This document shows, piece by piece, positions 1 to 31,857 of a stretch of 32,000 bases of DNA. The stretch's first letter is position 1; each line of letters begins with the position of its first letter. The translations under genes and the position numbers were made by a program. The stretch comes from an uncultured archaeon (GTDB taxonomy: Archaea; Iainarchaeota; Iainarchaeia; Iainarchaeales; Iainarchaeaceae): NCBI GenBank assembly GCA_964577555.1, contig CAZNZM010000008.1, positions 18,495 through 50,494 on the forward strand. The letters are read 5' to 3'. The notes under the pieces were generated by a model. That model did no database searches. It saw nothing but the letters and a program-made list of their open reading frames with translations, and had not been told where the DNA came from.

Positions 1-843
1 TTCTTGGGCTCTTCTGAGCCTATACTCTTCTACTTGTCCAGGCGCAACGAATTTTCCTATTTTGTCAAGAGCTTCCTTTTCACTCTTCACCATCAAATTT
101 TCAAGGTTTATAAGCACATCATTCTGTATTTCTTTTTGGTCAATAAACGCCTCTCTAATGCTTTGGCTGGATTTCAAACCCAACGCTTTCAACAAAACAA
201 AAAGCTTCAATTTTCTTGGCGATGAAGGAAAAGTTACAGTCAATATTCCGTCAGGCGCCCTCATTATTCTCACTCTTCCCTTGAAAGCACCTCTCGTACT
301 AATAACTTCCGCCACAGTCTTATCAGTTTGCTCCGAAACTATGACTCTGTCAGACGCAAGGACCTCTTGAGTCATGAGAGCTTTTTCCGAGCCATTGATG
401 ATAAAGTACCCGCCAAAATCCATTGGGTCTTCGCCCATCTCAATAAGCTCTTCATCAGTCTTGCCGTCAAGCCAGCACAACTTTGACTTTAACATTACGG
501 GCAATTCGCCTACATAAGTTTCTTTTCTGTCCTGCTCAACATCTCTTCTCAAAAGCTTCATAGTGAGATAAATAGGCGCGGAATAAGTTCTGTTTCTCAT
601 TCTTGCCTCCATTGGCAAAAACTTGTTTCTTGGGCTTCCATCAGCTTCCACAATTCTTGGCTTTTGTGTTACAATCTTTTCAAACTCAATCCTGACTTCC
701 TCTATTTTTGGAGTAACCTCGTTGTTTTCATGAATAATTTCAGGCAATTTCTTTTCAACAAATTGGTTAAAAGAATCTATTTCCATTTGGCTAATTTTTC
801 TATCCCTAAAATAAGCATCAATCAAACCCCAACCATCTATCAT
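1..843 (-). CDS. rpoB: DNA-directed RNA polymerase subunit B (Rpo2), N-terminal part. The gene runs off the left edge of the window.
   Basis: Absent from the ORF track because it is truncated. Manual reverse translation from the ATG (complement of 841-843) gives MIDGWGLIDAYFRDRKISQMEIDSFNQFVEKKLPEII...ARMRNRTYSAPIYL...GELPVMLKSKLCWL...DFGGYFIINGSEKALMTQE..., open for 281 codons to position 1. These are conserved N-terminal blocks of the second-largest RNAP subunit. The start overlaps the rpoH stop (ATGA), and rpoH-rpoB is the canonical archaeal order. Confidence 0.9.
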   Translation of the reverse strand, partial: MIDGWGLIDAYFRDRKISQMEIDSFNQFVEKKLPEIIHENNEVTPKIEEVRIEFEKIVTQKPRIVEADGSPRNKFLPMEARMRNRTYSAPIYLTMKLLRRDVEQDRKETYVGELPVMLKSKLCWLDGKTDEELIEMGEDPMDFGGYFIINGSEKALMTQEVLASDRVIVSEQTDKTVAEVISTRGAFKGRVRIMRAPDGILTVTFPSSPRKLKLFVLLKALGLKSSQSIREAFIDQKEIQNDVLINLENLMVKSEKEALDKIGKFVAPGQVEEYRLRRAQE

Positions 844-1097
844 TCAACCACCCTGAAATAGACAGATTTGCCGGCAGTAGGGCTGTTTCTCGTGATTTTA
901 ATAATGTCCCCTTTTTTGGCTCCTATTTCAACTATTGCAGGATCATCTTTCAAAATTCGCGGCAACTTTTCAATATTAGAACCATATTTAGCAAGCACTT
1001 CGCCAACCTTATTCTCTGGCACAATCTCATGCTTAGGAACCAGAAAATGCTGTGAAACCTTTTCCAATCCCAAGCCAACCAACCCCAAAAAAACCAA
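840..1097 (-). CDS. rpoH: DNA-directed RNA polymerase subunit H (Rpo5)
   Basis: The block HFLVPKHEIVPENKVGEVLAKYGSNIEKLPRILKDDPAIVEIGAKKGDIIKITRNSPTAGKSVYFRVV matches the RpoH/Rpb5 C-terminal domain pattern (LVPKHE...LP.I...DP....GAK.GD...I.R.SPTAG). There is no in-frame ATG. The start is TTG at 1097 or, more like known RpoH lengths, TTG at 1067. Confidence 0.9.
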   Translation of the reverse strand: MVFLGLVGLGLEKVSQHFLVPKHEIVPENKVGEVLAKYGSNIEKLPRILKDDPAIVEIGAKKGDIIKITRNSPTAGKSVYFRVVE

Positions 1098-1299
1098 CCC
1101 TTAAACCCAAATTTCTGGCTGCAAAATGCGGTTTAGGTGAAAAAACCCAAAAACCAAATGTAACAACCAGAAAGCGTGAATCCAAAACTACTATTAAATT
1201 AATAGAAAGGAATTTAAAGGTAACACAAAAAGCCAAATTTAATAATTTTGATTGTCTTAAATTTGTAGAAATGACTTTTTGCTATTAATTGCACAAAAG

Positions 1300-1826
1300 A
1301 TTTGTTGGTTTTTTACCAGCTTTTTTTGTTTTGCAAGTCAAACGGTTTTTATTGTTTTTTTTTAGTTTTTTTGGAAAGTATTTTATTTTCTTAGCTGTTT
1401 TTTTTGTGTTTTTTTTTGTCAATTTTTTTTTGTTTTTTTTTTTTGGCGGGTTGTTTTTTTTGTGGTCTTTTTTTTTGTTATTTTTTTTTGAGCCGTTTTT
1501 TTTGTCTTTTTTTTTGTGTTTTTTTTTGTCAATTTTTTTTGTTTTTTCGAACCAAATTTTTTTGTTTTAAACTTTTTTGTTTTTTTTACCAAGTTTTTTC
1601 TTTGAGGTTTTATTTTTTTGTTTTTGACATTGTTTTTTTTGGCGAGCGTTTTTTTGTCAATTTTTTTGATTTATTTTATTTTTTGTTTTTGTTGGCTTGG
1701 TTTTTTTTGTTGAGCCAATGTTGTTTTTTTTGGAAATTGTTTTTTTCTTTTTGGTTTGGATTGTCTTTTTTGCGAGCCGTTTTTTTTAGTCGGTTTATTT
1801 TCTTGGTGCTTTGATTTTTTAGCTGT
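1300..1826 (+). repeat. Strand-asymmetric oligo(T) array A with recurring GC-words. Non-coding.
   Basis: More than 35 T6-T13 runs on the + strand are separated by short G/C-containing words. A 26-nt unit GTGTTTTTTTTTGTCAATTTTTTTT occurs twice (about 1406-1431 and 1516-1540). A word family is present: GGCGGG, GAGCCG, GGCGAGCG, GAGCCAATG, TGCGAGCCG. The only ORFs are poly-Phe artefacts. Confidence 0.8.
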
Positions 1827-1916
1827 TTGCGGCAACATTTTCAATTTGTTTCCGCCACAAGATACTTTTTTTTGTTATGCTACTCTTTTTTAAGTAGTTC
1901 GCTTGTGTTTTTTTTT

Positions 1917-2567
1917 ATGAAAGAAGAGAATATAAGCTTGACAATATTGTTGGCGAAAAAAGCCGGCTTTGGAAAGAAATTCATGTTTTCCACTTCAAGC
2001 CTTGCCGAGATTACGGGGTATTCCCAGCAATCAATTTCAAGAAAATTAAGGGAAATGGAAGCAGATGGAATCATTTCAAGAAAGCCCTCGCCTTCGGGAA
2101 TTGAAATCCTGTTTACCGAAAAAGGCAGAAAGGAATTGGAATCGTTGTATTTAGAGCTTTCCGATTTGTTTTCAATAAAAAAGAAAAAAGAGTTGCAAGG
2201 AAAGGTGATTGACGGACTTGGCGAAGGAAAATATTACACTCAAATACCTCAATATAAATCTCAATTCAAAGAACTTTTCGGTATTGACTTGTATCCAGGT
2301 ACTTTGAATCTTTCAGTAGACCCTGACGAAAGATCTGCATTCCTATCAACTACTCCATTAAAAGTGAATGGTTTTCAGGATAAAGACCGGACATTTGGCG
2401 GAATAGATTGCTGGCAAGTAAAACTCAATGGTTCGGAATATGCAGTCGCAATAATACCTCACAGAACAAATCACCCAAAAAATGTGATTGAAGTGGTTTC
2501 AAGCTTCAACCTCAGAAAAAAATTGAATTTGAAAAACAATTCTGTTGTAAAAATGGTGATGGCATGA
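1917..2567 (+). CDS. rbkR: HTH-fused CTP-dependent riboflavin kinase (RbkR-type regulator/kinase)
   Basis: The C-terminal half (GKVIDGLGEGKYYTQIPQYKSQFKELFGIDLYPGTLNLSV...) matches the archaeal RibK (MJ0056) signature G.V.SGLGEG.Y....PY...F...LG..PY.GTLNL. The N-terminus (LAEITGYSQQSISRKLREMEADGII) is a winged-HTH. The likely start is ATG 1917, not the TTG at 1827, which lies inside the T array. The stop overlaps the ribC start (ATGA). Confidence 0.8.
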   Translation: MKEENISLTILLAKKAGFGKKFMFSTSSLAEITGYSQQSISRKLREMEADGIISRKPSPSGIEILFTEKGRKELESLYLELSDLFSIKKKKELQGKVIDGLGEGKYYTQIPQYKSQFKELFGIDLYPGTLNLSVDPDERSAFLSTTPLKVNGFQDKDRTFGGIDCWQVKLNGSEYAVAIIPHRTNHPKNVIEVVSSFNLRKKLNLKNNSVVKMVMA

Positions 2568-3088: not shown

Positions 3089-3493
3089 ATGAAAGTCATG
3101 AAAATAGGAATTGTTATTGCGGATTTTTATCCAGAAATAGCCAGTGAAATGCTTTCCGAAGCACAAAACGCAGCCAAAGAAAAAGGCATAAAAGTAGTTG
3201 CAGTTTCAAAAGTGGTTGGCGCATTTGACATTCCTATTGCGCTAAAAAGAATTCTTGAACGGAGAGATGTAAATGCAGCAGTAGTTCTGGGAGCGGTTGT
3301 GCAGGGCGAAACATCACATGACGAAGTAGTCGCATATACTTCTGCTGAAAAAATATTGTCTCTATCGCTTCAATACAACAAACCAGTTGGCTACGGCGTT
3401 TCAGGTCCAAGAATGACGATTGCACAAGCAAAAGCAAGAGCCAAAGAGTTTGCAAGAAGAGCCGTTGAAGCAATTTTTATCAGGCAATCCTAA
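3089..3493 (+). CDS. ribH: 6,7-dimethyl-8-ribityllumazine synthase
   Basis: KIGIVIADFYPEIASEML...VSKVVGAFDIPIALKRIL...VLGAVVQGETSHDEVV fits the lumazine synthase fold and signature (VPGA.E.P......LG.VIRG.T.HF). The ORF track starts at GTG 3080, but AGGTG at 3078-3082 sits 6 nt before ATG 3089, so 3089 is favoured. Confidence 0.85.
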   Translation: MKVMKIGIVIADFYPEIASEMLSEAQNAAKEKGIKVVAVSKVVGAFDIPIALKRILERRDVNAAVVLGAVVQGETSHDEVVAYTSAEKILSLSLQYNKPVGYGVSGPRMTIAQAKARAKEFARRAVEAIFIRQS

Positions 3494-7784: not shown

Positions 7785-7945
7785 TGCCATGCTTTGCATT
7801 TTTTTGTTTTAGAAATTCAATTTTTTATTTTTTTTAATTTGAATTGTTATTTTTTGCCATTTTCAAAATCATTTTTTTTATATTAAATTCCGTTTTTAAA
7901 TTTTTTAAAACTTTGATTATTTTCCGATTTTATTTTTTCAAATTT

Positions 7946-8947
7946 TCATATTTTAATTTTTTTGACTTCCACTTTTGCTTCTTCAAGCAATTCCAACGCC
8001 TCTTTTCCAAGCGGATAATCATAATTGTAAATAACACGCTTTATTCCGGCATTAATTATCATTTTACTGCAAGTTAAACAAGGGCTGTAAGTAGTATAAA
8101 TGTCAGAGTCTTTTGTTGAAATCCCGTGATACGCTGCTTGAACTATTGCGTTTTCCTCTGCATGAGAGCATCTGCATTCATCAAGTTTCGTGCCTTCTTT
8201 TGCAAATGAATTACACCTTAAACACCCGCCTTCGTTGCAATTTCTTACTCTTCGAGGAGTTCCATTATAACCTGTTGAAATAATCCTTTTTTCCCTCACT
8301 ATAACAGCCCCAATTTTTCTCTTTATGCAATTACTCCTTGTTGCTATCTCTTTTGCAATATTCATAAAATACTCGTCCCAATCAGGCCTTTTAAAATCAA
8401 CAGGCGTTTGAAGCAATACAGAATCAATTTTTTGGAATAATTCGGCAAGCGAACCATTGTTTTCAATTGTATGTCCAGCCATTGCAGCACAAACATCCAA
8501 TTGCTGACTACTGCTTTCCCCAGAAGAACTTTCAAATCTTTCCATTTTTCTAAATTCCTCAATGGTTTTAGGGTCACCTTCCCTATTTCTTTTCAATATT
8601 CTTTCAAACCTTGTTTTTTCATCAGAAATAATATTCCAAAGGTGAAAATTTCCGATTTTTTGCAATTCTTTTATTTCCTCTGGGTTGCGCAAAGAATCAA
8701 TTACATAATTTTTGTCTTTGGACATTTTGCCTACAATTCTTTTTGACAGATACCCGTTGCCATATTTTTTTCTCAATTCATTGCCTTTAGAAATCAAATT
8801 TTCCCTTGTAACAGGCAATTTTTCTTCAGCAAGAATTTCCCTGAGTTCATCAGAAAGAGAAAGATACCCAAAACTCTTTGATTTAAGGTATTCGCAAGCA
8901 GTTGTCTTGCCGGCACAATATTTTCCAGTAACTCCAATAACTATCAT
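7946..8947 (-). CDS. Fusion protein: N-terminal P-loop nucleotide/nucleoside kinase-like domain and C-terminal dCMP (deoxycytidylate) deaminase
   Basis: N-terminus: Walker A IGVTGKYCAGKTT plus a DSLRNPEE lid-like block. C-terminus: zinc motifs CSHAEENAI (H-A-E) and SPCLTCSKMI (PCxxC), and the TGYNG block of ComEB/dCMP deaminases. Start taken as ATG 8947. The track's TTG at 9019 adds an implausible leader. Confidence 0.8.
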   Translation of the reverse strand: MIVIGVTGKYCAGKTTACEYLKSKSFGYLSLSDELREILAEEKLPVTRENLISKGNELRKKYGNGYLSKRIVGKMSKDKNYVIDSLRNPEEIKELQKIGNFHLWNIISDEKTRFERILKRNREGDPKTIEEFRKMERFESSSGESSSQQLDVCAAMAGHTIENNGSLAELFQKIDSVLLQTPVDFKRPDWDEYFMNIAKEIATRSNCIKRKIGAVIVREKRIISTGYNGTPRRVRNCNEGGCLRCNSFAKEGTKLDECRCSHAEENAIVQAAYHGISTKDSDIYTTYSPCLTCSKMIINAGIKRVIYNYDYPLGKEALELLEEAKVEVKKIKI

Positions 8948-9039
8948 TGTTGAAAAAAATTCTTCGGACAAGGGTTTATAAAATGTAGCAAAAAAAAATT
9001 CTATTTCAAACCAATCCAACTAAAATAAAATTCCTAAAG

Positions 9040-20383: not shown

Positions 20384-20641
20384 TTTTTTTTTTGGCTTTG
20401 CAAATTTTTGCCCAAGTTTTTTGCTTGCATTTTTTTTATTTTTTGGTAAAGCTGTTTTTTTGCGAGTCATTTTTTGCGAGCCAAACATTTTTTTGTGTTT
20501 TTTTGGTTGTTGTTTTTTTTAGCTTGTTTTTTTTGATTAGTTTTGTTTTTGTAAGTAGTTGTTTTTTTGTTAGCCAAATTATTTTTTTTATTTTTTTGTT
20601 TTTTTAATGATTGTTTTTGAAGTTGTTTTTTTTGTTTTTGA
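20384..20641 (+). repeat. Strand-asymmetric oligo(T) array B with the same GC-words as arrays A and C
   Basis: T-run array containing TGCGAGTCATTTTTTGCGAGCCAAAC (20461-20486) and GTTTTTTTGTTAGCCAAATT (20561-20580). The latter is 20/20 identical to 30644-30663. The array lies in a convergent gap and continues into the Lys-rich tail codons of the PAP2 gene. Confidence 0.8.
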
Positions 20642-21616
20642 TTATGATTTTTTATTTGATTTTGGCTTTGGCATTTTTGTTTTTTTATAATTGCTTTTAT
20701 TTTCTTTTTCTTGAACAATTTGTTTAGTTTTTTGTTCCGCCGTTTTTTGGTTTTCAGTATTTTCCTGCTTTTTTGTAATGGCTTCGTATAATAAAGGATA
20801 TAAAAGAGTAATCCAGAGCCCTGCCAAAAAATAAGCTTCTGGCCCCATTGAAAAATTTTCTCCTAATAATAATATAACGCCTAATATGGCGAAGCCAAAA
20901 ATTGATTTTATTATAAATATTGATCCAGAAATTTTTTTGGTGTCAAAATTGGCTAATTTGAATGTTATTGCTCCTGCAAATAATCCTAAAAGTATTGAAG
21001 CCATTCCTATTGACCTGAAAAGCAGTGAAATTACGAGTGCTGCAATTACGAACGTAACCAGGCCTACTTCTTCAATCAGCCTTTTTTTGTCAAATCTTAT
21101 TTCTTTATAATAATCTTCAACTAAATGCATTAATCTTCCTATTGCAAAACCCAACAATGCACCTGCAAGTACGTCGCCAAGGTAATGCGCGCCAAGATAA
21201 ATTCTTGAAATCATGACAAGGATCAAAGACAAAAAACCAGCAAATTTTAATATATTTGACAATTTTGTCCAATAAAGTCCTAAAATTCCTGCAAATGTTG
21301 TGGCATGCCCTGATGGAAATGAAAAATTTGATTCAAAATCATGGTTGAATACTCTGAATTCTTCAATGGGCGGTCTTAATCTGCCTGCAAGAGGTTTAAT
21401 GATTCCAATGATCGAGGAAGTGAAAAGTATTGTTCCTGCAATCGCCATTGACTTTTTTTCTTCCCCTTTCCACCAATAAGCAGAGGCAATGATAACCCAA
21501 ACAATTGGGTGTCCCAAGTATGTTATTAAAATGAAAAACATGTCCAAGCTTGGACTTGTAAAAGACTGGACAAAATGCGAAAATAATATTTCAGGTTCAA
21601 TCGCTTCTATTGTCAT
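20642..21616 (-). CDS. PAP2-family lipid phosphate phosphatase (undecaprenyl/dolichyl-diphosphate phosphatase-like)
   Basis: All three PAP2 motifs are present: KPLAGRLRPP (KxxxxxxRP), FPSGHAT (PSGH) and SRIYLGAHYLGD (SRxxxxxHxxxD). The protein has multiple TM helices. It ends in a K/Q/N-rich tail encoded by A-rich sequence. Confidence 0.85.
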   Translation of the reverse strand: MTIEAIEPEILFSHFVQSFTSPSLDMFFILITYLGHPIVWVIIASAYWWKGEEKKSMAIAGTILFTSSIIGIIKPLAGRLRPPIEEFRVFNHDFESNFSFPSGHATTFAGILGLYWTKLSNILKFAGFLSLILVMISRIYLGAHYLGDVLAGALLGFAIGRLMHLVEDYYKEIRFDKKRLIEEVGLVTFVIAALVISLLFRSIGMASILLGLFAGAITFKLANFDTKKISGSIFIIKSIFGFAILGVILLLGENFSMGPEAYFLAGLWITLLYPLLYEAITKKQENTENQKTAEQKTKQIVQEKENKSNYKKTKMPKPKSNKKS

Positions 21617-21620
21617 TTTT

Positions 21621-22091
21621 TTACACTTTCACTTTTTTAAGCTTCTTCATACCTGGTATTTCAATTTGTGAGTAATCCACGAATAATCCACATTCTTTCA
21701 GAGCTTTTCTCATTGCATAAACTCTGCAAAATTGTTCAATTTCTTTTTGTTCATTTGATTGGAGGCTTGGCAATGCGGAAATTTCCTTTATTACTGAACT
21801 GACTTTGCGCGAATTCACTTCTTCAATTGCTTTTGCCGTGTCTTTTTTGTCAAGCCCAAGAGATGCAATTGCTGAATCAACTTTGTCAAGTTGCACTATT
21901 TTTCTCAAGTTTGTTTCTATTTTTGAGTCAAAGCTGTTTGAAAGACCTGCAATAAATTCAATTATTGTTTTAGGGTCTGTTGCAGGCTCAATTTTAAGTT
22001 TTCTGATTGCAACCCAATCATCATAATTTGCTACGAATTGAATGTACTTTTCTTCAGACACTAAACCACCTTTTAACTTTTTTTTCAACAA
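21621..22091 (-). CDS. Hypothetical soluble protein (about 150 aa), family not recognised
   Basis: ORF 4 nt upstream of the PAP2 gene on the same strand. It has TTG (22091) or GTG (22061, preceded by GGTGG) starts and is predicted to be helical. Confidence 0.5.
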   Translation of the reverse strand: MLKKKLKGGLVSEEKYIQFVANYDDWVAIRKLKIEPATDPKTIIEFIAGLSNSFDSKIETNLRKIVQLDKVDSAIASLGLDKKDTAKAIEEVNSRKVSSVIKEISALPSLQSNEQKEIEQFCRVYAMRKALKECGLFVDYSQIEIPGMKKLKKVKV

Positions 22092-22202
22092 AATAAAACT
22101 TAAATTATTTTTAATACTTTATTATTCATTGAAATTGCAAGGTTTGTTTTTTAATATCATAGTTATTTTTATTAATAAACAAATTTGTGGGGTTTTAGTA
22201 TT

Positions 22203-22508
22203 ATGGATGCATTGACGATTTTTTTTGGCATAGCAATATTGCTTTTGGCTGTTGTTTTTTCAATCGCCATATCCGCCGGGCTTTCTATTCTTCTTTACAA
22301 AAAAGCAGTCGAAAAATCGGTTGGGTTGTCAAGTAATGAAAAAGAGTTGCCTGAAATTTTGGCTAAACTTTCCAATCAAAGATTGGAAGACAAAAAAGAA
22401 TTTGATAAAAGGCTTTCCATAATAGAACACAAGATTGATGTTTTGATGATGCCAGAAGGAGTCCTCAAGGAAACTGAACTTGAAAGGTTAAAAGTTGTAA
22501 AAAAATAG
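22203..22508 (+). CDS. Small N-terminally anchored protein with a coiled-coil-like tail
   Basis: From ATG 22203 the product begins with the TM helix MDALTIFFGIAILLLAVVFSIAISAGLSILLY. A charged helical region follows. Confidence 0.45.
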   Translation: MDALTIFFGIAILLLAVVFSIAISAGLSILLYKKAVEKSVGLSSNEKELPEILAKLSNQRLEDKKEFDKRLSIIEHKIDVLMMPEGVLKETELERLKVVKK

Positions 22509-22529
22509 TCTTGACTTTTATTTTAATAA

Positions 22530-22602
22530 AGCCTCCGATGGGATTCGAACCCACGACCCGCGGTTTACAAAACCGCTGCTCTAACCGCTGAGCCACGGAG
22601 GC
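22530..22602 (-). tRNA. tRNA-Thr (UGU)
   Basis: Cloverleaf: GCCTCCG-TG-GCTC-AGCGGTTA-GAGC-A-GCGGT-TTTGTAA-ACCGC-GGGTC-GTGGG-TTCGAAT-CCCAT-CGGAGGC-T. Confidence 0.9.
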
Positions 22603-22678
22603 AAGCACTTTTTTTTATTTTTCTATTAACCAAAAAACCCCTTAATAATTTTTAATCCTTGCATGCCACAATAACTGA

Positions 22679-23326
22679 ATGAGCCATGATTTTAAATGCC
22701 ACAGATGCGGTGAATGTTGCAAAAAGTACTTTATAATCACCCTGCCGCATGAATTGAAAAAGCAAGCCAAGTTTATGGCTGTTACTGAAAAAGAATTTAT
22801 TGAGAATAACACTCAATTATTCCTGCAATTGTTTCCTTCAGGGCAAAGCGACACGAAAATTTCAATAAGTTCAGTAATGCTTCCTAAAAGAATAGCAAAA
22901 CTCGTTGAAAATGTTCATGGACATTTGCCTGATTTTCTTATTGCTTTGCCAATGCTGGCATTCAAACGAAGAAAAAACGGCGCGTGCAAATTTTTTGACG
23001 AAGACAAAAGTTGTTGTATAATTTATCCGGCAAGGCCCCTTGAATGCATTCTTTTCCCATTTATTTCAGAAAAAAAAGCCGAAAACTACTCAAAACTTTA
23101 TCCTTTTTGCAAAGGCCTTAAGGACAAAGACGGAAAACTTTCATATGCAGACTTCAGCCAAATTCATTTCAACGAAGTTTCAAAGTATTGCGACAATATA
23201 AAGAAGAAAGGGTTCGGCTCAATTTGGAAGCATTGGCCAAATAGCGGCGTTTTGCTTTTTCAAGAAAAGTTGTTAGGTAAAATAAGCCAAAAAGAATTTT
23301 TTGAAATAATTTTGCCTTATAAATGA
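22679..23326 (+). CDS. YkgJ-family (UPF0153) Cys-cluster zinc/iron-chelating protein
   Basis: The N-terminal CHRCGECC (CxxCxxCC) and the downstream GACKFF...KSCCIIYPARPLECILFP are the defining pattern of this family. Confidence 0.75.
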   Translation: MSHDFKCHRCGECCKKYFIITLPHELKKQAKFMAVTEKEFIENNTQLFLQLFPSGQSDTKISISSVMLPKRIAKLVENVHGHLPDFLIALPMLAFKRRKNGACKFFDEDKSCCIIYPARPLECILFPFISEKKAENYSKLYPFCKGLKDKDGKLSYADFSQIHFNEVSKYCDNIKKKGFGSIWKHWPNSGVLLFQEKLLGKISQKEFFEIILPYK

Positions 23327-23425
23327 AAATCTCTGATATTGCTTGACAAAGATGATTATTTTTGCTGAAATTTCAAGACAATTAGGCTTTTCGCAAATCA
23401 TGGTAAAAAAAGAATTTATTTTACG

Positions 23426-23500
23426 TGCCCTGGACGGGATTTGAACCCGTGCGTCCACCGTGAGAGGGTGGTGTCCTTGACCGGGCTAGACGACCAGGGC
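23426..23500 (-). tRNA. tRNA-Glu (CUC)
   Basis: Cloverleaf: GCCCTGG-TC-GTCT-AGCCCGGTCAA-GGAC-A-CCACC-CTCTCAC-GGTGG-ACGC-ACGGG-TTCAAAT-CCCGT-CCAGGGC-A. Confidence 0.9.
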
Positions 23501-23762
23501 AAAAAGAATTTCATAGATCGCTTTTGATTAGAAACTTGCAGGCAAATAATTAAAAGGCAAATAATTAAAATATAATTTTACAATTGCAATTTTGGAAGAT
23601 TTTTACAAGTTTAAACTAAAACCATTTTTACGACAATTGTCAAAAAAAAAAATAATATTTAATAACTATTTTTAGTTAAAAGATTAATTAATATTTGTTT
23701 TGTTATAAAATAAATATAAACAAATTGCCTTTTTTGGCTAACTTGTTAAACTGGTAATTGCA

Positions 23763-24122
23763 ATGGTTTTTTTTGAAGTAGTTCATGCTTTAATTAACCT
23801 TGACTTGGCTTTTTTTGTAGACATAACCATGAACAATATTCTTTGGGTTTTCATATTTGTTGTTTTAGTAAATTATTTCTTTAAAAAAAACAAGTTATTC
23901 TGGCTTTTATTTTTTCCAGTAGAAATTTGGGTAGTAACTGATTTCGGAAAACTCACTGGCATGGCATTTTCAGATTTCAACTTTATGATTATTAATTACA
24001 TTATAAAGTTTGCTTTGTTAATAATTGTTGTAAATATTCAAAGCTTGAAAAAATACACTATTTTGTTTTCAATACTACAAGGATATTCTGTTATATTTTT
24101 ATTTACTTTTTTATTGAAGTGA
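23763..24122 (+). CDS. Hypothetical small membrane protein in a very AT-rich orphan segment
   Basis: 119-aa ORF with 3-4 hydrophobic helices. I recognise no homology. In sequence this AT-rich, ORFs arise easily, so confidence is low. Confidence 0.35.
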   Translation: MVFFEVVHALINLDLAFFVDITMNNILWVFIFVVLVNYFFKKNKLFWLLFFPVEIWVVTDFGKLTGMAFSDFNFMIINYIIKFALLIIVVNIQSLKKYTILFSILQGYSVIFLFTFLLK

Positions 24123-24393
24123 TAAAAATGAAGTTTGCAAAATTAGCTATTTTAGGGCTTTGGTTCGGATTTTTATAAATTATTATTATGGCTATAGGCG
24201 AATCGATTTTTCCAGGCTCCTTGAGCGATAATGCATTCACAAATTTAGGAATTATTATAATATTGACATCAGGAATCATAAATTTTATATTCGCATTTCA
24301 CGGAGTAGACTAAAATTCCAATCAAAAAAAAGAATTTTCAAAAAGCATTTAATTTTTAGAAAAAAATATTAATTCAAAAATGAAGTATTACAA

Positions 24394-24633
24394 ATGCCTA
24401 AAAGAATATTTAACACTAAGCCAAAAGTACCTACCAATGCTGTAAAAAACCGTGCAAAACCGCCTATTGAAGAAACAATTGAAAAATTTTTAAAGCTGAA
24501 AGAGCAAGGAAGACTTCCAAAACAAAAGCCTGACTCATTTAGAATACTTTGCATTTTGGCTATAAGAAAAGGTTTTACTCCTGAAGAAGCAAGTATAATA
24601 GCTAATTTGGTTTTAGGAACAAAATATAATTAA
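24394..24633 (+). CDS. Hypothetical small basic protein (79 aa)
   Basis: ATG-initiated ORF with a Lys/Pro-rich N-terminus and a helical C-terminus (FRILCILAIRKGFTPEEASIIANLV). It ends 1 nt before the tRNA on the opposite strand. Confidence 0.4.
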   Translation: MPKRIFNTKPKVPTNAVKNRAKPPIEETIEKFLKLKEQGRLPKQKPDSFRILCILAIRKGFTPEEASIIANLVLGTKYN

Positions 24634-24634
24634 A

Positions 24635-24707
24635 TGTCGGTGGGCGGAATCGAACCGCCGACACCCGGCTTATGAAACCGGTGCTCTAACCCCTGAGCTA
24701 CACCGAC
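24635..24707 (-). tRNA. tRNA with CAU anticodon: elongator Met, or Ile2 if C34 is modified
   Basis: Cloverleaf: GTCGGTG-TA-GCTC-AGGGGTTA-GAGC-A-CCGGT-TTCATAA-GCCGG-GTGTC-GGCGG-TTCGATT-CCGCC-CACCGAC-A. It is not an initiator because it lacks the A1:U72 start. Confidence 0.9.
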
Positions 24708-24899
24708 AAAAACCTGAAAACAGAAACAATTTCTTGATTCGTGTTAAATTAGAAATTAAATCCAAAAGAAATAAAAGCCTCGCTAAAAGTAGAAAAAAAG
24801 ATTTGTTTACCAAGGCAAAAAATTTGAATTTAAAAATTAAAAAAAGGATTGGCTCAGCGAAAAACCTGAAAAACAATGCCAATTTACCAAATATGGAAT

Positions 24900-25571: not shown

Positions 25572-25847
25572 GAAACAAAAAATAACCAAAGGTATATTTA
25601 TTAATGACTAAAACAAAGGCCGTAATAAAAAAATCACCTTTGCTTTTAAACAAAGATCGCTTTTTTTTGTCAAAAAATTTTCTATTTTGGCTTTTTCCAA
25701 AATCGCGCTTTATAGATCATTTTTGCAAGTCTTAAAACAAGTCTATTTCAAAAACGAGAACTCCCAAAAGCCAAGGCTTGAAAAAATTAAAAAAATAAAA
25801 AATTAAGAATCAGTTTTAATTTCAAGAAACACAAAATAGACTAAAAA

Positions 25848-26279: not shown

Positions 26280-29200
26280 TTAACTACTGCTGTTTTTTGA
26301 AACAATTATTGAAGCAATTATTGTTATAACTACAATTAATACAATTGCCATTCCAATTCCAGCATATACTAACAATGGTTCATAATCTTGCTTCTTTTCT
26401 ATTTCTTTACCTTCTTTTTTTACTGTTAAAACACTTTCAATAACAACATATTCTTTATTTTTTTCAATTGGCATTATATTTAACCTTGCATTATAATCAC
26501 CTAATTCAGGCTTTTCCCAAATTTCAGAAAATTTATTAATTGTTTTTTTGTTTTTTTCAATTCCTTTTAAAGTTTTTTCAGCACTAAAAACAGTTTTTCC
26601 ATTTTTTGAAATGATTATCTCCGCAATAAAATTATTTATGTCGCTTTCATGATAAAAGTCAAACAATATTTCTGCATTATCTTCTGAAAGCCATTTCAAA
26701 TTTATAAAATTCACTTCAATTTTTGGTTGAAGCAACTTCTTCTCTTCGCGTTTTTTTACTTTTATTTCAATCGACTTTTGAGCTACTAAATTTTTATTGT
26801 CATATGCTTTTACCAGCAAATTATGTTCTCCAACAGGCAATTTTTCTAAATTGAAATCAAGTGTCTTGCCATATTTTTCTCCAAATTTTTTATCCCCCAC
26901 ATAGTATTCTATTCTTTCAATTGTTTTGTCGTCTTTAGTGTCAACTTTGATTGTTATTTTTGAATCATCATATATTTCATGGTTGTTATCAGGCAAGATT
27001 ATATCAAAATTTTTTTGAATAATTTTATCTTTGTCAGGTTTAGATTTTACAATTATTTTTATTTTTTCAGCTGTGTTTTTGGAAAATTCGTCATCAATTG
27101 CAATTGCATATAATTCATTTTCACCGGTTTTTGCAATCCATTTTATTGAAAAAGGCCTTGTTGTATCAGTTCCTAAAATTTCATTTTTGTTATAAAATTC
27201 AACGATTTTTATTTGCCCATCATTGTCTCTTGCATTTGCTTCGATTAGTATTTCAGTACCTTCAATGAAAATTTCTTCATTCAAAGGCCTTGTCAAGAAT
27301 ATTGTAGGCGGTTGATTTTCCCCTAACACATTAACAATTAATGGTTCTGAAGTGGCTTGTCTACCTCTGCTGTCAGTTAGTTTTGCTACAAATTCATGTC
27401 TTCCTTTTCTCAAGTTTTGATATGTAATAGTATCAACATTATTAGAGTATTCTGCAAATTTAGTGTTATCTTTAAATATTTCAAGTTTTGAGATGGCAGA
27501 GTTTGTTAATGTGATATTTACCTTAATGATTATATTTGCAGGTTCTCTTAATTTATCTTGATTTTGAAGTGCAAGACTGATTTTAGGCTCCAGTATTTTT
27601 TCTGCTATTATAGTTATTGGTTCTGATAAATTTATTGCTCCCTTCTCATCAATTGCCCTTGCATTGATTATGTATATGCCTTCATTGTTTGGAGTCCAAA
27701 TTATTGAATATGGGCTTGTCGTGGTTTCGCTTATTTTTATTCCATTTACATAGAATTCTACTTTTGTTATGGTTCCGTCTGGGTCGTTGGCGTTTGCTGT
27801 TATGGTTATGTTTGCTGGTGTTGTGAATGTTTGTCCGTTTGTGGGTGTTGTTATGGTTATTGTTGGGTTTTGGTTTGGTGGGTTTATTGTTATTGTTGTG
27901 GTTGTGGTTGTTGTTGCTAGTTGGTTGTCTGTTGCTTTTGCTGTTATTGTGTAGGTTCCTGGTGTGTTGATTGTGTGTGTGTGGGTGTATGGTGGTGTTG
28001 TTTTTGTTGCTATTAGTGTTGTGTTGAGGTAGAATTCTACTTTTGTTATGGTTCCGTCTGGGTCGTTGGCGTTTGCTGTTATGGTTATGTTTGCTGGTGT
28101 TGTGAATGTTTGTCCGTTTGTGGGTGTTGTTATTGATATAAATGGTGGTTGGTTGCTGTTGCATGTTGGTTTCCATGTTATTTCTGTTCCTGTTTTGCAT
28201 CTTATCCAATATGCTTCGTAGTTGTTTAGTTTGAAATCTATTTTGTTTCCTTTGAAATTTTCTGAAATGTTTTCAGTCCAGAATATGATTGGCCAACTTT
28301 TTCCATAGGCGTTAGAAATTAAGTCGCAATTTGGGTTTATTCTTGATATTTCTTTTAGTACTTGTGATGCCGTGTATTTATCTCCACAGAATGGTAATCC
28401 GATTAAATTGTGTTCTTCTGTTAGTTTTACTTTTGGAGAAGTGTTTAATGTGGTTCCAGAAAATGTTAGAGTTACATCATCAAGTGCTGTAACAATAATT
28501 CCTTCTCCTGAATTGAATTTTCTTTCGGTTTCGCCTATCCATTCATTGAATTCCTTGTTATATTCTAACGTTTTATAACCTTGTCTTTCTTTGTATTTGA
28601 TAATAACATTTGCAGAAGGTGGTGTTTGGAAGATCTCGTTAATAGTTTTGTTGTCTACATTTACTGGGAAAGAAATTGCATATTCATTATTGCTTTTATT
28701 TAGTTTGATGGTTGATTGGTTTATAATCTGGTAATCCGTTCCTTTGCAATGTCCTTGAAAACATCCTTCTCTGCAGATTGTTTCATTAGCAAAACCGATT
28801 TCATCACCAATGCACTCTTTTTTAGTATTGGAGTTTTCACATATCCAACTTCCTGCATCGATTTTTGTTTGGTCTTGTGTTAAGCAACCAGGATTAGTAT
28901 AAATTATTCTAATTGTTTCGTTAGTTGGAGAGTCTTTTATTCTCATTAAAGGATCGCCAATAATTGTGTTTACTGAATAGTAATTATTTTCCTTGTATGA
29001 TTTGAGAAATGCTTCCGCTATTGTGAGTCCTGCAGCGTAGTTTGCAAAGAATTTTCCCACATCGACTACATATGTTGTGGTTGGTTCGTATATATTTCCA
29101 AATGCTGCTGAAAAACTGTTTGAGTAATTTGTTCCACCGAATGCTATTGGAGAAATTGCATCTGCTATCAAACCTTGGTTTGTTTCCCTTTTTTGATTTG

Positions 29201-30224
29201 GGGCTCCTGTCATAGTTGCAGCATTCCAACTTTCAATGCTGTTAAACACCGCTCTGTTTGATACATTACTTCTTACTTTTGGGTTTCCTGCAATCCATAA
29301 AGAGTCGTATCCTTGATGAACTCCCCAACTTGAATATACTACAAGAGGCTTGTCGTAAGATGTTTTATTCCAACGTGTACTTACTACTAAGTCTGGGTTT
29401 ATGCCGACACTTTTCATTGGTCTTCCAAACATCTCTGGTATATAAAGTTTATCTGGCATTCCGAAATAATCTACTGGCATTCCGAAATAAACAGATGAAA
29501 GGTTTGGTGCTGGTTCTTGTGCTTTGTCAATCATTTTTTTTATGTCACCAATGTTAAAACCATTGAGGTGTGAAACTGCAAATCTGAGTTTTTCATCTTT
29601 ATAACGTTCAGGATCAAAGTGTTGAACTGTAGTATCCATTTTGTAATTTTCTGGCAAAGAACGAAGAATGTAGTCTTCCAAATTGGTTGCAGTTCTCCAA
29701 TTTCCTTCATATGCAAGTAATGTTGCTGTTGAGCCAATAATTAACTTGTAATCTGAGCCGGGAATCATGTTATTGCCCGGGTATTTATTTGCTTTATCAT
29801 AAATCGCGATTGGCAGATATTTTGCTATTGCCAAATGGGTTATTTTCATTTCCGGGTGTTGATTTACATATTGGAATATTGGTTTAGCAATGTATTCAAT
29901 GAATTTGTCTCCATTCATTGATTCTTTTTTTATTCTTTCATGTGGAGGAAATACTTCGTCTGGCACGTTAAGTCCTAATGATTTGGCGCCAGGCCTTTTT
30001 AAAACGTAATAATCACAAATTTCTTTTGATTCGCTTATATTTGAATTATATATGCATAAAACGTTTTGATTTGTAGGTATTGCTGAGTAGGCAAATGGTA
30101 AAGTAGTTATTATTAAAAGAAAAATTATCCAAATTTTGGTTTTAAGTCTGGGTTCGAAGTTGTTTTGCATTTGTATTTTTTTGGGATTAATCATTATATA
30201 TATTTTTTTTTTGGGATTAATCAT
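26280..30224 (-). CDS. Giant C-terminally anchored surface protein. In order: signal peptide, TIGR03790-like N-terminal domain, Cys-rich linker, beta-rich domain, about five Ig-like (Big_7-type) repeats, and a TM anchor.
   Basis: - Signal peptide: MQNNFEPRLKTKIWIIFLLIITTLPFAYS|A.
- N-terminal region: VLCIYNSNISESKEICDYYVLKRPG...IIGDPLMRI resembles the TIGR03790 family from memory.
- Ig repeats: the pattern P.NG..F..P..I.I.A.A.D.DG.I.KVEFY occurs repeatedly.
- Anchor: C-terminal GIGMAIVLIVVITIIASIIV.
- Start: probably ATG 30170 rather than 30224 or 30194 (see findings). Confidence 0.85.
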   Translation of the reverse strand: MINPKKKIYIMINPKKIQMQNNFEPRLKTKIWIIFLLIITTLPFAYSAIPTNQNVLCIYNSNISESKEICDYYVLKRPGAKSLGLNVPDEVFPPHERIKKESMNGDKFIEYIAKPIFQYVNQHPEMKITHLAIAKYLPIAIYDKANKYPGNNMIPGSDYKLIIGSTATLLAYEGNWRTATNLEDYILRSLPENYKMDTTVQHFDPERYKDEKLRFAVSHLNGFNIGDIKKMIDKAQEPAPNLSSVYFGMPVDYFGMPDKLYIPEMFGRPMKSVGINPDLVVSTRWNKTSYDKPLVVYSSWGVHQGYDSLWIAGNPKVRSNVSNRAVFNSIESWNAATMTGAPNQKRETNQGLIADAISPIAFGGTNYSNSFSAAFGNIYEPTTTYVVDVGKFFANYAAGLTIAEAFLKSYKENNYYSVNTIIGDPLMRIKDSPTNETIRIIYTNPGCLTQDQTKIDAGSWICENSNTKKECIGDEIGFANETICREGCFQGHCKGTDYQIINQSTIKLNKSNNEYAISFPVNVDNKTINEIFQTPPSANVIIKYKERQGYKTLEYNKEFNEWIGETERKFNSGEGIIVTALDDVTLTFSGTTLNTSPKVKLTEEHNLIGLPFCGDKYTASQVLKEISRINPNCDLISNAYGKSWPIIFWTENISENFKGNKIDFKLNNYEAYWIRCKTGTEITWKPTCNSNQPPFISITTPTNGQTFTTPANITITANANDPDGTITKVEFYLNTTLIATKTTPPYTHTHTINTPGTYTITAKATDNQLATTTTTTTITINPPNQNPTITITTPTNGQTFTTPANITITANANDPDGTITKVEFYVNGIKISETTTSPYSIIWTPNNEGIYIINARAIDEKGAINLSEPITIIAEKILEPKISLALQNQDKLREPANIIIKVNITLTNSAISKLEIFKDNTKFAEYSNNVDTITYQNLRKGRHEFVAKLTDSRGRQATSEPLIVNVLGENQPPTIFLTRPLNEEIFIEGTEILIEANARDNDGQIKIVEFYNKNEILGTDTTRPFSIKWIAKTGENELYAIAIDDEFSKNTAEKIKIIVKSKPDKDKIIQKNFDIILPDNNHEIYDDSKITIKVDTKDDKTIERIEYYVGDKKFGEKYGKTLDFNLEKLPVGEHNLLVKAYDNKNLVAQKSIEIKVKKREEKKLLQPKIEVNFINLKWLSEDNAEILFDFYHESDINNFIAEIIISKNGKTVFSAEKTLKGIEKNKKTINKFSEIWEKPELGDYNARLNIMPIEKNKEYVVIESVLTVKKEGKEIEKKQDYEPLLVYAGIGMAIVLIVVITIIASIIVSKNSSS
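27751..28133 (-). repeat. Intragenic direct repeat: two 104-bp perfectly identical copies spaced 279 bp (93 codons) apart, duplicating an Ig-like domain
   Basis: 27751-27854 and 28030-28133 are identical by direct reading (TAGAATTCTACTTTTGTTATGGTTCCGTCTGGGTCGTTGGCG...GTGGGTGTTGTTAT). Both encode TTPTNGQTFTTPANITITANANDPDGTITKVEFY. Confidence 0.9.
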
Positions 30225-30367: not shown

Positions 30368-30402
30368 GTTTTTCAGAAAGTAATATAAAACAATTATAAA
30401 AT

Positions 30403-30422
30403 CCTCTTCAAAGAGGGTTTTT
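30403..30422 (+). terminator. GC-rich hairpin followed by T5 (intrinsic-terminator-like). The strand on which it functions is unclear.
   Basis: CCTCTT-CAA-AGAGGG followed by TTTTT. It lies between oligo(T) array C and the tRNA-Thr(GGU) promoter. No + strand gene lies upstream, so it may instead end the minus-strand lipoprotein transcript, where the hairpin is followed by ATTTTATAATTGTTTT. Confidence 0.3.
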
Positions 30423-30589
30423 AACTTTTGCGAGTCCCAGGTTGTGTAGAAATCATGTTTGCTTTTTGTGTAAGGCTTATTTTTTTGTCAAAAAGTTTTT
30501 TTGTTGCTTTATAAATAATTTCTACATGGTCAGAGTCGGAAAACGCGTGTATTCAAAGATTTTGATTTAGTGCAAGTATCTTATATTTT

Positions 30590-30788
30590 TTCGTAAGCTA
30601 TTTTTTATTTGATTTTTTTTGTTTTTGCGAGCCGAATTGTCGTGTTTTTTTGTTAGCCAAATTTGTTTTTCTTATTTTGTGATTTTTATTTTTTTGTTTG
30701 TTTTTTTGCGCGCCATTTTTTTAGCAAAACTTTTTTTGTCATATTTTTTTGATATTTTTTTAATTGGAATTTGTTTTTTGTAGTATTT
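30590..30788 (+). repeat. Strand-asymmetric oligo(T) array C with the same GC-words as arrays A and B
   Basis: T-run array containing GTTTTTGCGAGCCGAATTGTCG (30621-30642), GTTTTTTTGTTAGCCAAATT (30644-30663) and TTTTTTTGCGCGCCATTTTTTT (30701-30720). It directly abuts the stop codon of the lipoprotein gene. Confidence 0.8.
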
Positions 30789-31574
30789 TTACTTTTTAAT
30801 TATTTTGAGTATTACCATTCCAATTATTGGAATCGTGATAATTCCTATTGCAATAATTGATAATATTATAATTATTCCAAAGTTAATATCAAATCCTTCA
30901 AAATTTATATTTAGGGTGTTTCCAAAATCAAAGCCGGTTTCTTCTGAAATTATTTCTATGTCTGATTTTAGTTTTTGTTCTTCTTGGATAAAATCAATTA
31001 CGACGCTTTTTCCGTCTTCCGATATTTTTCCTGCATTTGTTGATATTATTTTTCCCGGCATTTTAATGGTCAAATTGATTTCCATTCCAGTCATTTTTAT
31101 CTTTTCAGGCGTTAATTCCATGTTGTTTTCTGCTTCTTTTTGCTCTTTATTATAAGCTTTTAACGTGAATTTGTATTTTTTAGGATTCGCCTTTTCATCA
31201 ACAGTGAATGAATCGCTGAAATCCACGTTTTTCCATGCCAATTTTACATAGTCTTCAACAGCTGTGCATTCCGCTTCTGACGGATCCAATTTTATTTTTC
31301 CAGGAAGAACTCCTGTCCCGCTTTCTTTGTAATCTTTATTTTGTGCTTTAATTGTTTCACATATGTTTTCTTTTTTGTATTTTTCTTCAAAATCCCCTTC
31401 CTGGTTTTCCATGTTTTTGATTGCTTCAACAAATTTTTTTATGTCTGTTGTTATTTCAACATTGCCTTTTCCATCTTTACCTATTTCGTATTTTAAATTC
31501 ATTTTTATGCAACCAGACAAAGAAAAAGTCAATAGTATTAAAATGGCGACAAATAAGACTTTTGTTTTTTGCAT
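30789..31574 (-). CDS. Lipoprotein-like surface protein with a C-terminal TM anchor
   Basis: From ATG 31574 the product begins MQKTKVLFVAILILLTFSLSGC (lipobox LSGC). A hydrophilic K/E-rich domain follows. The C-terminus is the helix FGIIIILSIIAIGIITIPIIGMVILKIIKK. The track's longer N-terminus (KYKYKYK) is probably not translated. Confidence 0.6.
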   Translation of the reverse strand: MQKTKVLFVAILILLTFSLSGCIKMNLKYEIGKDGKGNVEITTDIKKFVEAIKNMENQEGDFEEKYKKENICETIKAQNKDYKESGTGVLPGKIKLDPSEAECTAVEDYVKLAWKNVDFSDSFTVDEKANPKKYKFTLKAYNKEQKEAENNMELTPEKIKMTGMEINLTIKMPGKIISTNAGKISEDGKSVVIDFIQEEQKLKSDIEIISEETGFDFGNTLNINFEGFDINFGIIIILSIIAIGIITIPIIGMVILKIIKK

Positions 31575-31857
31575 AGATGACACAATAATTTTTTTATATT
31601 TATATTTATATTTTCTAATTTTAACTTTTGCTATATACTGAAATCCTCGTCTTTTCAGGTTTTTATAATTAAAGATAGTTTTTTTTATTATAGAGAAATA
31701 CACGAACCGTAAGTAGAGATGTTTTTCATTGCAAGTAACTTAGTACTTCAGACAGGAGTAAATTATTTTACAATAAAATAGTCAATGATTAGATAACGCA
31801 AAAAAATTCTTGAATAATTTAAAAAGAAAAAGAGTTTGTTTTTTTATCAATTTTTTA

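Follow-up and report, generated by a model that had tools for sequence, protein, structure and literature searches.

A 32,000-nt stretch of DNA from an uncultured archaeon of the Iainarchaeaceae (contig CAZNZM010000008.1, positions 18,495 to 50,494; hereafter the window) carries, between the divergently transcribed genes rpoH and rbkR, a block of closely spaced oligo(T) runs separated by short recurring words, which we refer to as array A1. Two lumazine-synthase-family genes lie downstream of rbkR, and the RpoB'' protein encoded in the window is 89–90% identical to those of Candidatus Iainarchaeum / Diapherotrites metagenome-assembled genomes (MAGs). We compared the window strain (W) with two relatives, R (JGI 3300010938, contigs L138 and L144) and S (JGI 3300035183, contig L139). 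By way of the proteins adjoining two further arrays, A2 and A3, about 10 kb past the window in W (contig L141), 37 kb of R and 7 kb of S were recovered. R is the closest relative found, with an RbkR that is 95% identical and fourfold degenerate sites that are 25–40% different. The comparison shows that A1 belongs to a family of oligo(T)-word arrays, all strand-polar and inserted at gene junctions, that is specific to one small clade of the DPANN archaeon Candidatus Iainarchaeum.

The base fractions of window 1300–1826 on the + strand are T 0.658, G 0.165, C 0.072 and A 0.104. There are 31 runs of six or more T (T6+) and 35 of five or more (T5+), with a maximum length of 12, and not a single run of four or more A. 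The T6+ density is 58.8/kb, compared to 4.6/kb in the remaining window (where A6+ runs occur at 3.1/kb), and the clustering exceeds what the array's own composition gives (31 runs versus 14.6 ± 2.3, maximum 21, in 1000 shuffles). A preliminary description of the locus had put the block at more than 35 runs of T6–T13 and three quarters T, a slight overstatement of a T-run block that is itself real. The recurring words that it quoted proved correct on recount, each with its coordinate: GTGTTTTTTTTTGTCAATTTTTTTT at 1406 and 1516, TTTTTGTCAATTTTTTT at 1413, 1523 and 1651, GGCGGG at 1445, GAGCCG at 1490 and 1774, GGCGAGCG at 1641, GAGCCAATG at 1712 and TGCGAGCCG at 1771. Also upheld were the irregular spacing of the T-runs, which lack a 10–11 bp periodicity, and the statement that the + strand open reading frames (ORFs) encode only poly-Phe. 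For A1 in the window, Tandem Repeats Finder (TRF) detected no more than a 12-nt period (67% matches) and 2.3 copies of a 38-nt unit.

The sequence of A1 is reproduced in independent assemblies. The exact RbkR protein was found on four contigs from four samples, and the A1 spacer is base-for-base identical in L001 and, over the part that they cover, in L002, L003 and L004, with one single-nucleotide polymorphism in L004. L001 spans the whole spacer as a single contig, while the other three begin inside A1, at window positions 1586, 1586 and 1704. Likewise, window 30368–30800, around A3, is identical in four assemblies. Since the assemblies of strain W are all clonal and identical, they carry no information on run-length variation among strains. 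Short-read contigs repeatedly end inside arrays, not only at window 1586 and 1704 but also at the end of L138 (16093) and at both ends of L139. Because short-read assemblies break there, the arrays are likely under-represented in MAGs and at contig ends, and they may be more widespread than databases show.

Could A1 be an ancestral spacer? In some 20 species-level Iainarchaeota rbkR is encoded on the strand opposite to rpoH and no more than a few kb upstream of it. The two genes are adjacent in about a dozen of these relatives, with an ordinary spacer of 250–440 bp, and the remaining ones have 0.9–3.2 kb with extra genes in between. None of the ~20 carries an array at this junction, and 80 GTDB species representatives fetched via RpoB'' contained zero arrays; only W and the two close relatives R and S carry them. 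In many relatives one of the extra genes encodes an MscS-type channel (mscS) on the rbkR strand. There, the distance from the mscS stop to the rbkR ATG is 60–110 bp and is filled by a conserved promoter/operator-like block. The block ACTCnTTTTTGnTAAGCAnCnCATTTTTAAGTAnTTC upstream of rbkR (recognisable at window 1862–1900) is present in at least eight Iainarchaeota, was kept in L138 and probably comprises TATA/BRE plus an RbkR operator. Along the R contig come rpoH, then mscS with a frameshift, an oligo(T) array of 610 bp (L138 9330–9940) that is homologous to A1, the same promoter block and rbkR. This order, together with the short mscS–rbkR gaps elsewhere, indicates that the array arose in the common ancestor of W and R, and that W later lost mscS and kept the array. 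The comparison of gene orders thus shows that A1 is not ancestral spacer: at least 500 bp were inserted, or grew by expansion, between the stop codon of mscS and the promoter of rbkR, and this change is specific to the lineage. Absence or lack of conservation at orthologous loci, which the preliminary description had named as counting against it, applies across the phylum and does not apply among the close relatives, in which arrays occupy the same loci. In R, mscS (L138 8243–9320) is split into at least two frames; in W the gene is fully lost and the adjoining array kept.

The AT-skew profile of the window has three troughs, at ~1200–2000, 20400–20800 and 30400–30800, and a sliding criterion found four T-rich blocks and zero A-rich ones. 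The recurrence of the architecture at 20384–20641 and 30590–30788, T-rich on the + strand as described before, was upheld, and a weaker block was added at 7785–7945. With two loci outside the window, the arrays of the three genomes fall into six loci, A1 to A6 (Table 1). They measure 210–900 bp and have 8–41 T6+ runs each, whereas ordinary spacers of the window hold 0–7 T5+ or A5+ runs and ordinary terminators 1–7 runs in less than 200 bp. A1 to A5 are all present in both W and R despite a fourfold-site divergence of 0.25–0.40.

Table 1. Features of the rpoH/rbkR junction and of the array family (window coordinates unless a contig is named; genomes as defined in the text).
Feature	Position	Strand	Context and remarks
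rpoH (PF01191)	840..1022/1097	-	left flank of A1; first gene of the rpoH-B''-B'-A'-A'' operon
rpoH-upstream (promoter) region	1098..1260	-	near-identical in R (L138 8031-8200)
mscS-deletion junction	~1260-1300		
Array A1, oligo(T)-word array	1300..1826	+	between rpoH and rbkR; W, R; T-rich zone 1268-1852 by 150-bp sliding criterion
Inverted pair TTGGCTTGG-T8-GTTGAGCCAA, then T-run	1690..1720	+	recurrent hairpin module of the family; also in the R arrays at A2 and A6
Signature word TTTTTGCGAGCCG	1767..1779	+	family motif T5+ GCGAGCC R, then T-run
rbkR promoter/operator-like block	1855..1916	+	conserved across Iainarchaeota; abuts array end
rbkR (HTH + CTP-dependent riboflavin kinase)	1917..2567	+	right flank of A1
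Array A4	7785..7945	+	HAD (+) / dCMP-deaminase (-), convergent; weak in W, family member in R
Array A2	20384..20641	+	h125 (+) or rpiA / PAP2 (-), convergent in W; W, R, S
TTTTTGCGAGCC word in A2	20471..20482	+	one-mismatch copy TTTTTGCGAGTC at 20457-20468
Array A3	30585..30795	+	LppM-like (-) 3' end / tRNA-Thr(GGT) (-) promoter; W, R, S; A-rich in both neighbours' sense
TTTTTGCGAGCC word in A3	30622..30633	+	
Array A5	outside window		M24 peptidase / intron-containing tRNA; W, R
Array A6	outside window		divergent gene pair; R
K-rich coding loci mimicking arrays	L014, L016, L024, L030, L042, L079, L084 (~11.8-12.1 kb); L042 4394-4888		

Array A2 has orthologues in S (L139 4467–5123) and R (L144 16884–17662), and its size is 258 bp in W, 657 bp in S (whose PAP2 is 81% identical) and about 780–900 bp in R. 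In the relatives represented by L140 and L145 (PAP2 51% and 62% identical) there is no A2 array, and the convergent neighbour is 1–5 bp away. T-richness runs past A2 into the K/E/Q-rich C-terminal coding tail of PAP2, to about position 20780. This tail of ~45 residues, rich in K, E, Q and N (window 20642–20780, minus strand), overlaps the T-rich zone and is absent from shorter homologues of 285–313 residues; the edge of A2 may have been recruited as PAP2 coding sequence. A3 has orthologues at L144 10741–11048 and L139 6785–7081, and a 52% identical relative has normal sequence, with no array, downstream of its LppM-like gene. A 21-nt stretch of A3, TGTTTTTTTGTTAGCCAAATT at 30643–30663, matches 20560–20580 of A2 exactly. 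A4 in the window is without the family vocabulary, and its R orthologue holds an 82-bp exact copy of the repeat unit of the R array at A1 (R_A1; the other R arrays are named likewise).

Two observations concern the genes next to these loci. The interval separating A3 from tRNA-Thr contains a small hairpin plus T5, CCTCTTCAAAGAGGGTTTTT, and a TATA-like palindrome, TTTATAAATA (30403–30422 and 30509–30520); the block beside the tRNA-Thr promoter is conserved in R, and the region may represent a small RNA or a divergent promoter. An intron-containing tRNA just downstream of A5 (L141 ~3270–3370, ~7 kb past the right end of the window; L144 ~8000–8100) is perfectly conserved between W and R and was missed by ARAGORN in bacterial mode.

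Base composition is uniform among the arrays (T 0.54–0.66, G 0.12–0.17, C 0.07–0.13, A 0.10–0.21). BLAST scores between arrays do not exceed those of token-shuffled controls; they are uninformative because T-runs dominate, and the sharing of T-poor k-mers was used instead. According to this measure, 94 T-poor 10-mers are common to non-homologous arrays, against 12.5 ± 4.8 (maximum 33) in 300 within-word letter shuffles. Together with the 21-nt match of A2 and A3 and the 82-nt copy in R_A1 and R_A4, these 10-mers represent sharing beyond composition, as expected of a dispersed repeat family. The word TTTTTGCGAGCC with at most one mismatch has 6 matches in the window versus 0.39 expected. GCGAGCC occurs 13 times in 5.5 kb of arrays (2.34/kb, background 0.02/kb) and in 9 of 12 arrays, while its complement occurs once on the T-rich strand. 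The extended motif T5+ GCGAGCC R (R, purine) followed by a T-run is enriched ~100-fold with a 13:1 strand bias. The words thus lend partial support to the proposal of the preliminary description that the arrays may bind a factor through GCGAGCC or AGCCAA: GCGAGCC is enriched and strand-specific, AGCCAA/TTGGCT occurs in both orientations, forming short inverted pairs around a T-run (for example at 1690–1720), and GTTAGCCAAA alone, with one mismatch allowed, is not enriched in the window.

The T-runs follow a grammar of their own. Their lengths peak at 7–8 and are not geometric as in the background, with 71, 105 and 77 runs of 6, 7 and 8 and a collapse from 9 upwards (14, then 2), and the base after a T-run is G in 58% of cases. 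Start-to-start distances vary from 5 to 24 nt and the spectral peaks, at 14–18 nt, differ by array, so that no period is common to the arrays. Phased A-tract bent DNA was rejected for lack of a 10–11 bp phase, and a CRISPR array for lack of a constant direct repeat. As to secondary structure, all arrays together contain 7 perfect 6-bp stems versus 1.9 ± 1.6 in shuffles, and a GG[CT]T[CT][GA] arm stands upstream of [CT]GAGCC in 9 of 25 cases versus 3.5 ± 1.6. On both strands, local folding is stronger than in word-shuffled controls (summed z-scores, -3.0 and -6.4), and fold z-scores were -2.3 for the + strand and -0.5 for the - strand. Two weak candidates for a bacterial-type intrinsic terminator, a hairpin plus T-run, lie in A1 (1690–1720 and 1304–1320, against 0.9 expected); they have 6-bp stems and T-rich loops, and R_A6 has no such candidate. 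At gathering score, Rfam identified five tRNAs in the window and nothing in the arrays.

The arrays change rapidly. R_A1 contains a 176-nt unit three times in tandem (100%, 96% and 74% identity), of which 82 nt recur with 100% identity in R_A4, 6 kb away (L138 15972–16053), and with ~90% identity in R_A2. W and R arrays of the same locus can barely be aligned, while the adjoining tRNA genes and promoters are ~100% conserved. These comparisons show that the arrays turn over by run-length change, long-unit tandem duplication and the copying of segments between loci. They show equally that composition, the T7–8 run length, polarity and a small vocabulary persist while sequence does not; the persistent vocabulary consists of the T-run with GCGAGCC and a purine, the TTGGCT…AGCCAA pairs and GTCAA. 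Of the earlier idea of a decaying family of intergenic repeats, the family is thus real, as the shared 10-mers attest, but it is active and not decaying, given the triplicated 176-bp unit and the exact 82-bp copy. Terminal inverted repeats (TIRs) and defined ends were not found in the arrays, an inverted-repeat search giving only low-complexity A-run/T-run matches to the flanks. A miniature inverted-repeat transposable element (MITE) or other transposable element was rejected on the same grounds, with no target-site duplication and with array ends that differ between W and R. Three array words searched in viral contigs gave chance matches only, with no arrays and no sign of a viral or plasmid source. 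A scan of metagenome contigs with TTTTTTTGTTAGCCAAATT gave 30 matches, all by chance in ordinary sequence, from a collection evidently without the organism.

Structural change is seen beside the arrays, namely the mscS deletion at A1 and inversion breakpoints at A2. The block from A2/PAP2 to tRNA-Met (window 20384–24708; L144 16884–20798; L139 1–5123) is inverted in R and S relative to W, and because the outgroups L140 and L145 share the W order, this order is ancestral. In S, arrays of opposite polarity lie at both inversion junctions, as if one breakpoint had been inside A2. Between A5 with its tRNA and tRNA-Leu, W carries an island of ~3.5 kb (an amine-oxidase-like gene and a gene for 600 residues) that is missing in R (L141 3376–7110 versus L144 8107–8583).

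All five W arrays, spread over ~45 kb, are T-rich on the window + strand, and the polarity is retained by the orthologues in R and S, apart from A2, whose block is inverted there. A single polarity at six independent loci in the ancestral gene order has a p of ~0.03. This polarity is independent of local gene orientation at A1 to A6. In R, A1 is flanked by two + genes and has its T-runs on their sense strand; in W it occupies a divergent junction with no + gene upstream. Minus-strand genes flank A3 and A5, whose sequence is A-rich when read in the sense of those genes. A2 and A4 occupy convergent junctions and A6 a divergent one. A rule that arrays are T-rich in the sense of the gene ending there fails for A3, A5 and A6, and the opposite rule fails for A1 and A6. 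A common polarity along the chromosome is the one arrangement that accommodates all six loci. Most genes are encoded opposite to the T-rich strand, namely 29 of 39 protein genes and every tRNA. The ordinary terminators of minus-strand genes appear as short A-run clusters on the + strand (8948–9039, 24709–24899 and 25770–25805) and are not expanded; overgrowth of such terminators would have given the opposite polarity, so the arrays are not simply explained in that way. At third codon positions, GC skew in + and - genes agrees in sign (-0.08 and -0.05 in + coordinates, each ~2 standard errors, SE), a weak hint that the minus strand is the leading strand.

We tentatively favour the hypothesis that the arrays are a self-propagating polar repeat family whose T-strand presents stacked archaeal terminator signals and would act as a one-way transcription barrier, a generalised form of the one-directional insulator of the preliminary description. 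Archaeal terminators are U4–U7 tracts, and both their efficiency and the binding of aCPSF1 rise with tract number (PMC8716108). If terminators are U-tracts that become stronger with tract number, an array should stop transcription of the T-strand and be transparent the other way. Each T6–9 run along the T-rich strand would serve as an intrinsic or aCPSF1-type terminator signal, and the array as a whole would almost completely stop RNA polymerases that travel in the window + direction, while a polymerase coming from the opposite direction would meet no T-runs and pass. Arrays would then end + strand genes at A2, at A4 and, after mscS, at A1 in R. They would also kill divergent or antisense transcripts from strong minus-strand promoters, namely those of the rpoH operon (A1), of tRNAs (A3, A5) and of a 502-residue gene (A6), and would leave the prevailing minus-strand transcription untouched. 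A plausible source of + strand transcripts can in this way be named for every locus. The retention of A1 to A5 in both W and R, in a tightly packed genome that has just deleted the gene beside A1, speaks for this reading.

Likeness to known archaeal oligo-T terminators lies in the T-runs on the non-template strand (the usual criterion being at least 4–5 T, with 31 T6+ in A1), in run lengths of 6–9 that match the efficient class, and in the position of A2, A4 and R_A1 directly 3' of a gene in sense orientation. On the other hand, known terminators have one to ~4 tracts within ~30–50 nt, a compactness that the arrays lack with their 10–40 tracts over 200–900 bp. Half of the arrays are not 3' of any gene of the T-strand, and, in the manner of a dispersed repeat family, the arrays duplicate and have a non-T vocabulary in common. 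The oligo-T insulator of the preliminary description thus agrees with the run grammar (T7–8, then G) and with the 3' placement at A2, A4 and R_A1. It agrees less well with A3 and A5, which are A-rich in the flanking sense, and with a length of more than ten times that of ordinary terminators.

Several points weigh against a barrier. Two to four T-runs suffice for termination; an array length of 250–900 bp appears grossly excessive. In the window, several convergent junctions have gaps of 2–32 bp and no array, which argues that such barriers are not generally needed. A3 and A5 are without an annotated + strand transcript to stop and could halt only antisense or divergent transcripts, the latter from an assumed source. 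W and R differ in word order, which argues against precisely positioned functional sites. The uniform polarity (six loci, ~50 kb) could also result from local copying in direct orientation or from a replication-linked mutational bias, and a pure oligo-T terminator model leaves GCGAGCC unexplained.

The main rival, somewhat unlikely in our judgement, is a functionless simple-sequence expansion, selfish or neutral, in which T-runs seeded by a terminator or by a run of K codons grow by replication slippage, unequal crossing-over and gene conversion and are tolerated because they are intergenic, with termination being incidental. Much of the arrays' behaviour is what such an expansion would produce: they are lineage-specific and recent, sequence turnover between W and R is near-complete, R_A1 is triplicated in tandem and segments are copied between arrays. 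The three-fold size variation of A2 (258, 657 and 780–900 bp), the company of rearrangements (mscS deletion, inversion breakpoints) and a length out of proportion to terminator need point the same way. An expansion without function does not readily account for the persistence of A1 to A5 in both lineages of a gene-dense genome that lost mscS, nor for run lengths peaked at 7–8 with a sharp cut-off in place of a geometric distribution, for a specific strand-biased word maintained through turnover, or for the uniform polarity. Two kinds of known repeats are instructive here. Like REP/BIME, MITEs, Correia and RPE elements, the arrays are lineage-specific, intergenic and multicopy with recent inter-locus copies, and they are associated with assembly breaks and rearrangements; unlike them, they have no TIRs, unit ends or target duplications, are of low complexity in place of a palindromic unit, and show no transposase association. 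Minisatellites resemble the 176-bp unit of R_A1 with its three copies and the weak TRF periods of 12–38 nt in A1, whereas most of each array is irregular (64–79% matches, spacing 5–24 nt) without a common period. We very much doubt a second proposal, polar protein-binding arrays in which GCGAGCC and/or TTGGCT…AGCCAA are sites for a putative DNA/RNA-binding factor and the T-runs are spacers or release elements, used as a roadblock-type terminator or as a chromosome-orienting signal that, like KOPS or Chi, is co-oriented with replication and would be read by a DNA-tracking machine. The enrichment of GCGAGCC, always after T5+ and before a purine plus T-run, the inverted half-sites GGCT/AGCC, including a perfect palindrome GGCTAGCC in R, and a polarity independent of flanking genes suggest such sites, and the sign of the third-position GC skew (~2 SE) hints that polarity could parallel replication direction. 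With about one GCGAGCC per 400 bp, however, most array sequence lies outside the site, the sites have not kept their positions between W and R, and the polarity is supported by six loci only. Known polar signals and barriers, such as KOPS/SRS, Chi, Ter/Tus, the replication fork barrier of ribosomal DNA and the T-rich plus Reb1 terminator of RNA polymerase I (Pol I), are single short sites distributed through genes and spacers; the eukaryotic Pol I terminator of the roadblock type consists of a T-rich element plus a Reb1/Nsi1 site. The arrays share with them a single polarity over tens of kb regardless of gene orientation and a short strand-specific word (GCGAGCC) beside a T-run. They differ in being 500-bp blocks of low complexity.

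Less probable again is a DNA-structural element, in which rigid poly(dA:dT) tracts would exclude histones or nucleoid proteins from the DNA preceding strong promoters (rpoH operon, two tRNAs, rbkR) or would act as a supercoil or unwinding buffer. Promoter-proximal poly(dA:dT) is a histone-excluding element in yeast and Plasmodium. In four of the six arrays the end lies 80–220 bp before a gene encoded on the A-rich strand (rpoH, tRNA-Thr, the intron-containing tRNA and the 502-residue gene), T7–8 belongs to the length class that stiffens DNA, and composition is conserved while sequence is not. A2 and A4, by contrast, lie at convergent 3' ends without a promoter, helical phasing is absent, and the strict strand asymmetry and GCGAGCC would go unexplained. 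The poly(dA:dT) intergenic DNA of Plasmodium, Dictyostelium and yeast promoters has dense tracts, evolves quickly by slippage and lies upstream of promoters, and it resembles the arrays in having tracts confined to intergenic DNA and in conserving composition without sequence. It occurs on both strands, genome-wide and at much greater lengths, whereas the array runs are capped at 9, on one strand and at few loci, in a prokaryote with ~33% GC in its coding DNA. Lysine-rich coding on the minus strand (a separate gene or C-terminal tails, interrupted by homopolymer sequencing errors or translated with frameshifting) is effectively refuted: stops are few on the A-rich strand, gene callers placed ORFs of 55–57 residues there, the K/E/Q-rich tail of PAP2 overlaps the T-rich zone and K-rich coding is common in Iainarchaeota, but the three minus-strand frames are K-rich with stops every 30–60 codons, independent assemblies agree on the homopolymer lengths, C exceeds G on the A-rich strand but G exceeds C in true K-rich coding, and no reading frame is conserved between W and R. 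An assembly or sequencing artefact, or a replication origin or DNA-unwinding element, is effectively excluded as well. Contigs often break in the arrays, which are AT-rich and easily melted; yet the sequence is identical in 3–4 independent assemblies from different samples and has orthologous arrays in relatives, and an origin is at odds with six copies in ~50 kb, no adjacent Orc1/Cdc6 gene and no inverted repeats like those of origin recognition boxes (ORB).

By class, the arrays combine known kinds, arrays of terminator signals and intergenic repeat families. Literature searches gave no description of such arrays in Diapherotrites or DPANN. Could they nevertheless form an undescribed class of chromosome-polar element? 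We regard this as quite unlikely, though the sequence allows one to picture one-way "valves" of iterated oligo(T) and GCGAGCC, co-oriented over a replichore. Possible roles for such valves would be to block RNA polymerases moving against the replication-co-directional flow, suppressing head-on and antisense transcription, or to provide orientation signals for a DNA-tracking or termination factor reading GCGAGCC. If so, persistence through sequence turnover would reflect selection on polarity and composition and not on sequence. DPANN genomes are thought to be stripped to essentials, and here ~5% of a 45-kb stretch consists of recently acquired strand-polar oligo(T) arrays that survived while a neighbouring gene was lost. 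Should the favoured barrier hypothesis hold, an archaeon without hairpin-dependent terminators would have built near-absolute, orientation-specific insulators from the minimal terminator signal, and the arrays would be natural parts for tests of archaeal termination (U-tract number, aCPSF1/FttA dependence). If the arrays are instead selfish, they would represent a novel type of low-complexity repeat, one that multiplies within a streamlined archaeal genome and favours deletions and inversions.

Some coding sequences resemble arrays in composition. In other Iainarchaeota, the A-rich regions flagged among the 80 species representatives are K-rich coding that mimics arrays; they encode the RpoA'' N-terminus or a K/E-rich protein next to rbkR, and have G>C and intact frames. 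Within the window, a gene for a Big_7/PKD surface protein of 1314 residues (26280–30224, minus strand) contains 167-nt internal repeats (27709/27988, 83%), and its T/G-skewed patch on the + strand, especially at 27600–28400, is coding and not an array. JGI contigs break in this gene (window ~27880), which is missing at the same position in S (L139). A T/G-rich stretch at window 31800–32000, GTTGTTGTTTGTGTATGTTG…, resembles the Big_7 repeat patch and probably represents the 3' portion of a further repeat-protein gene on the minus strand.

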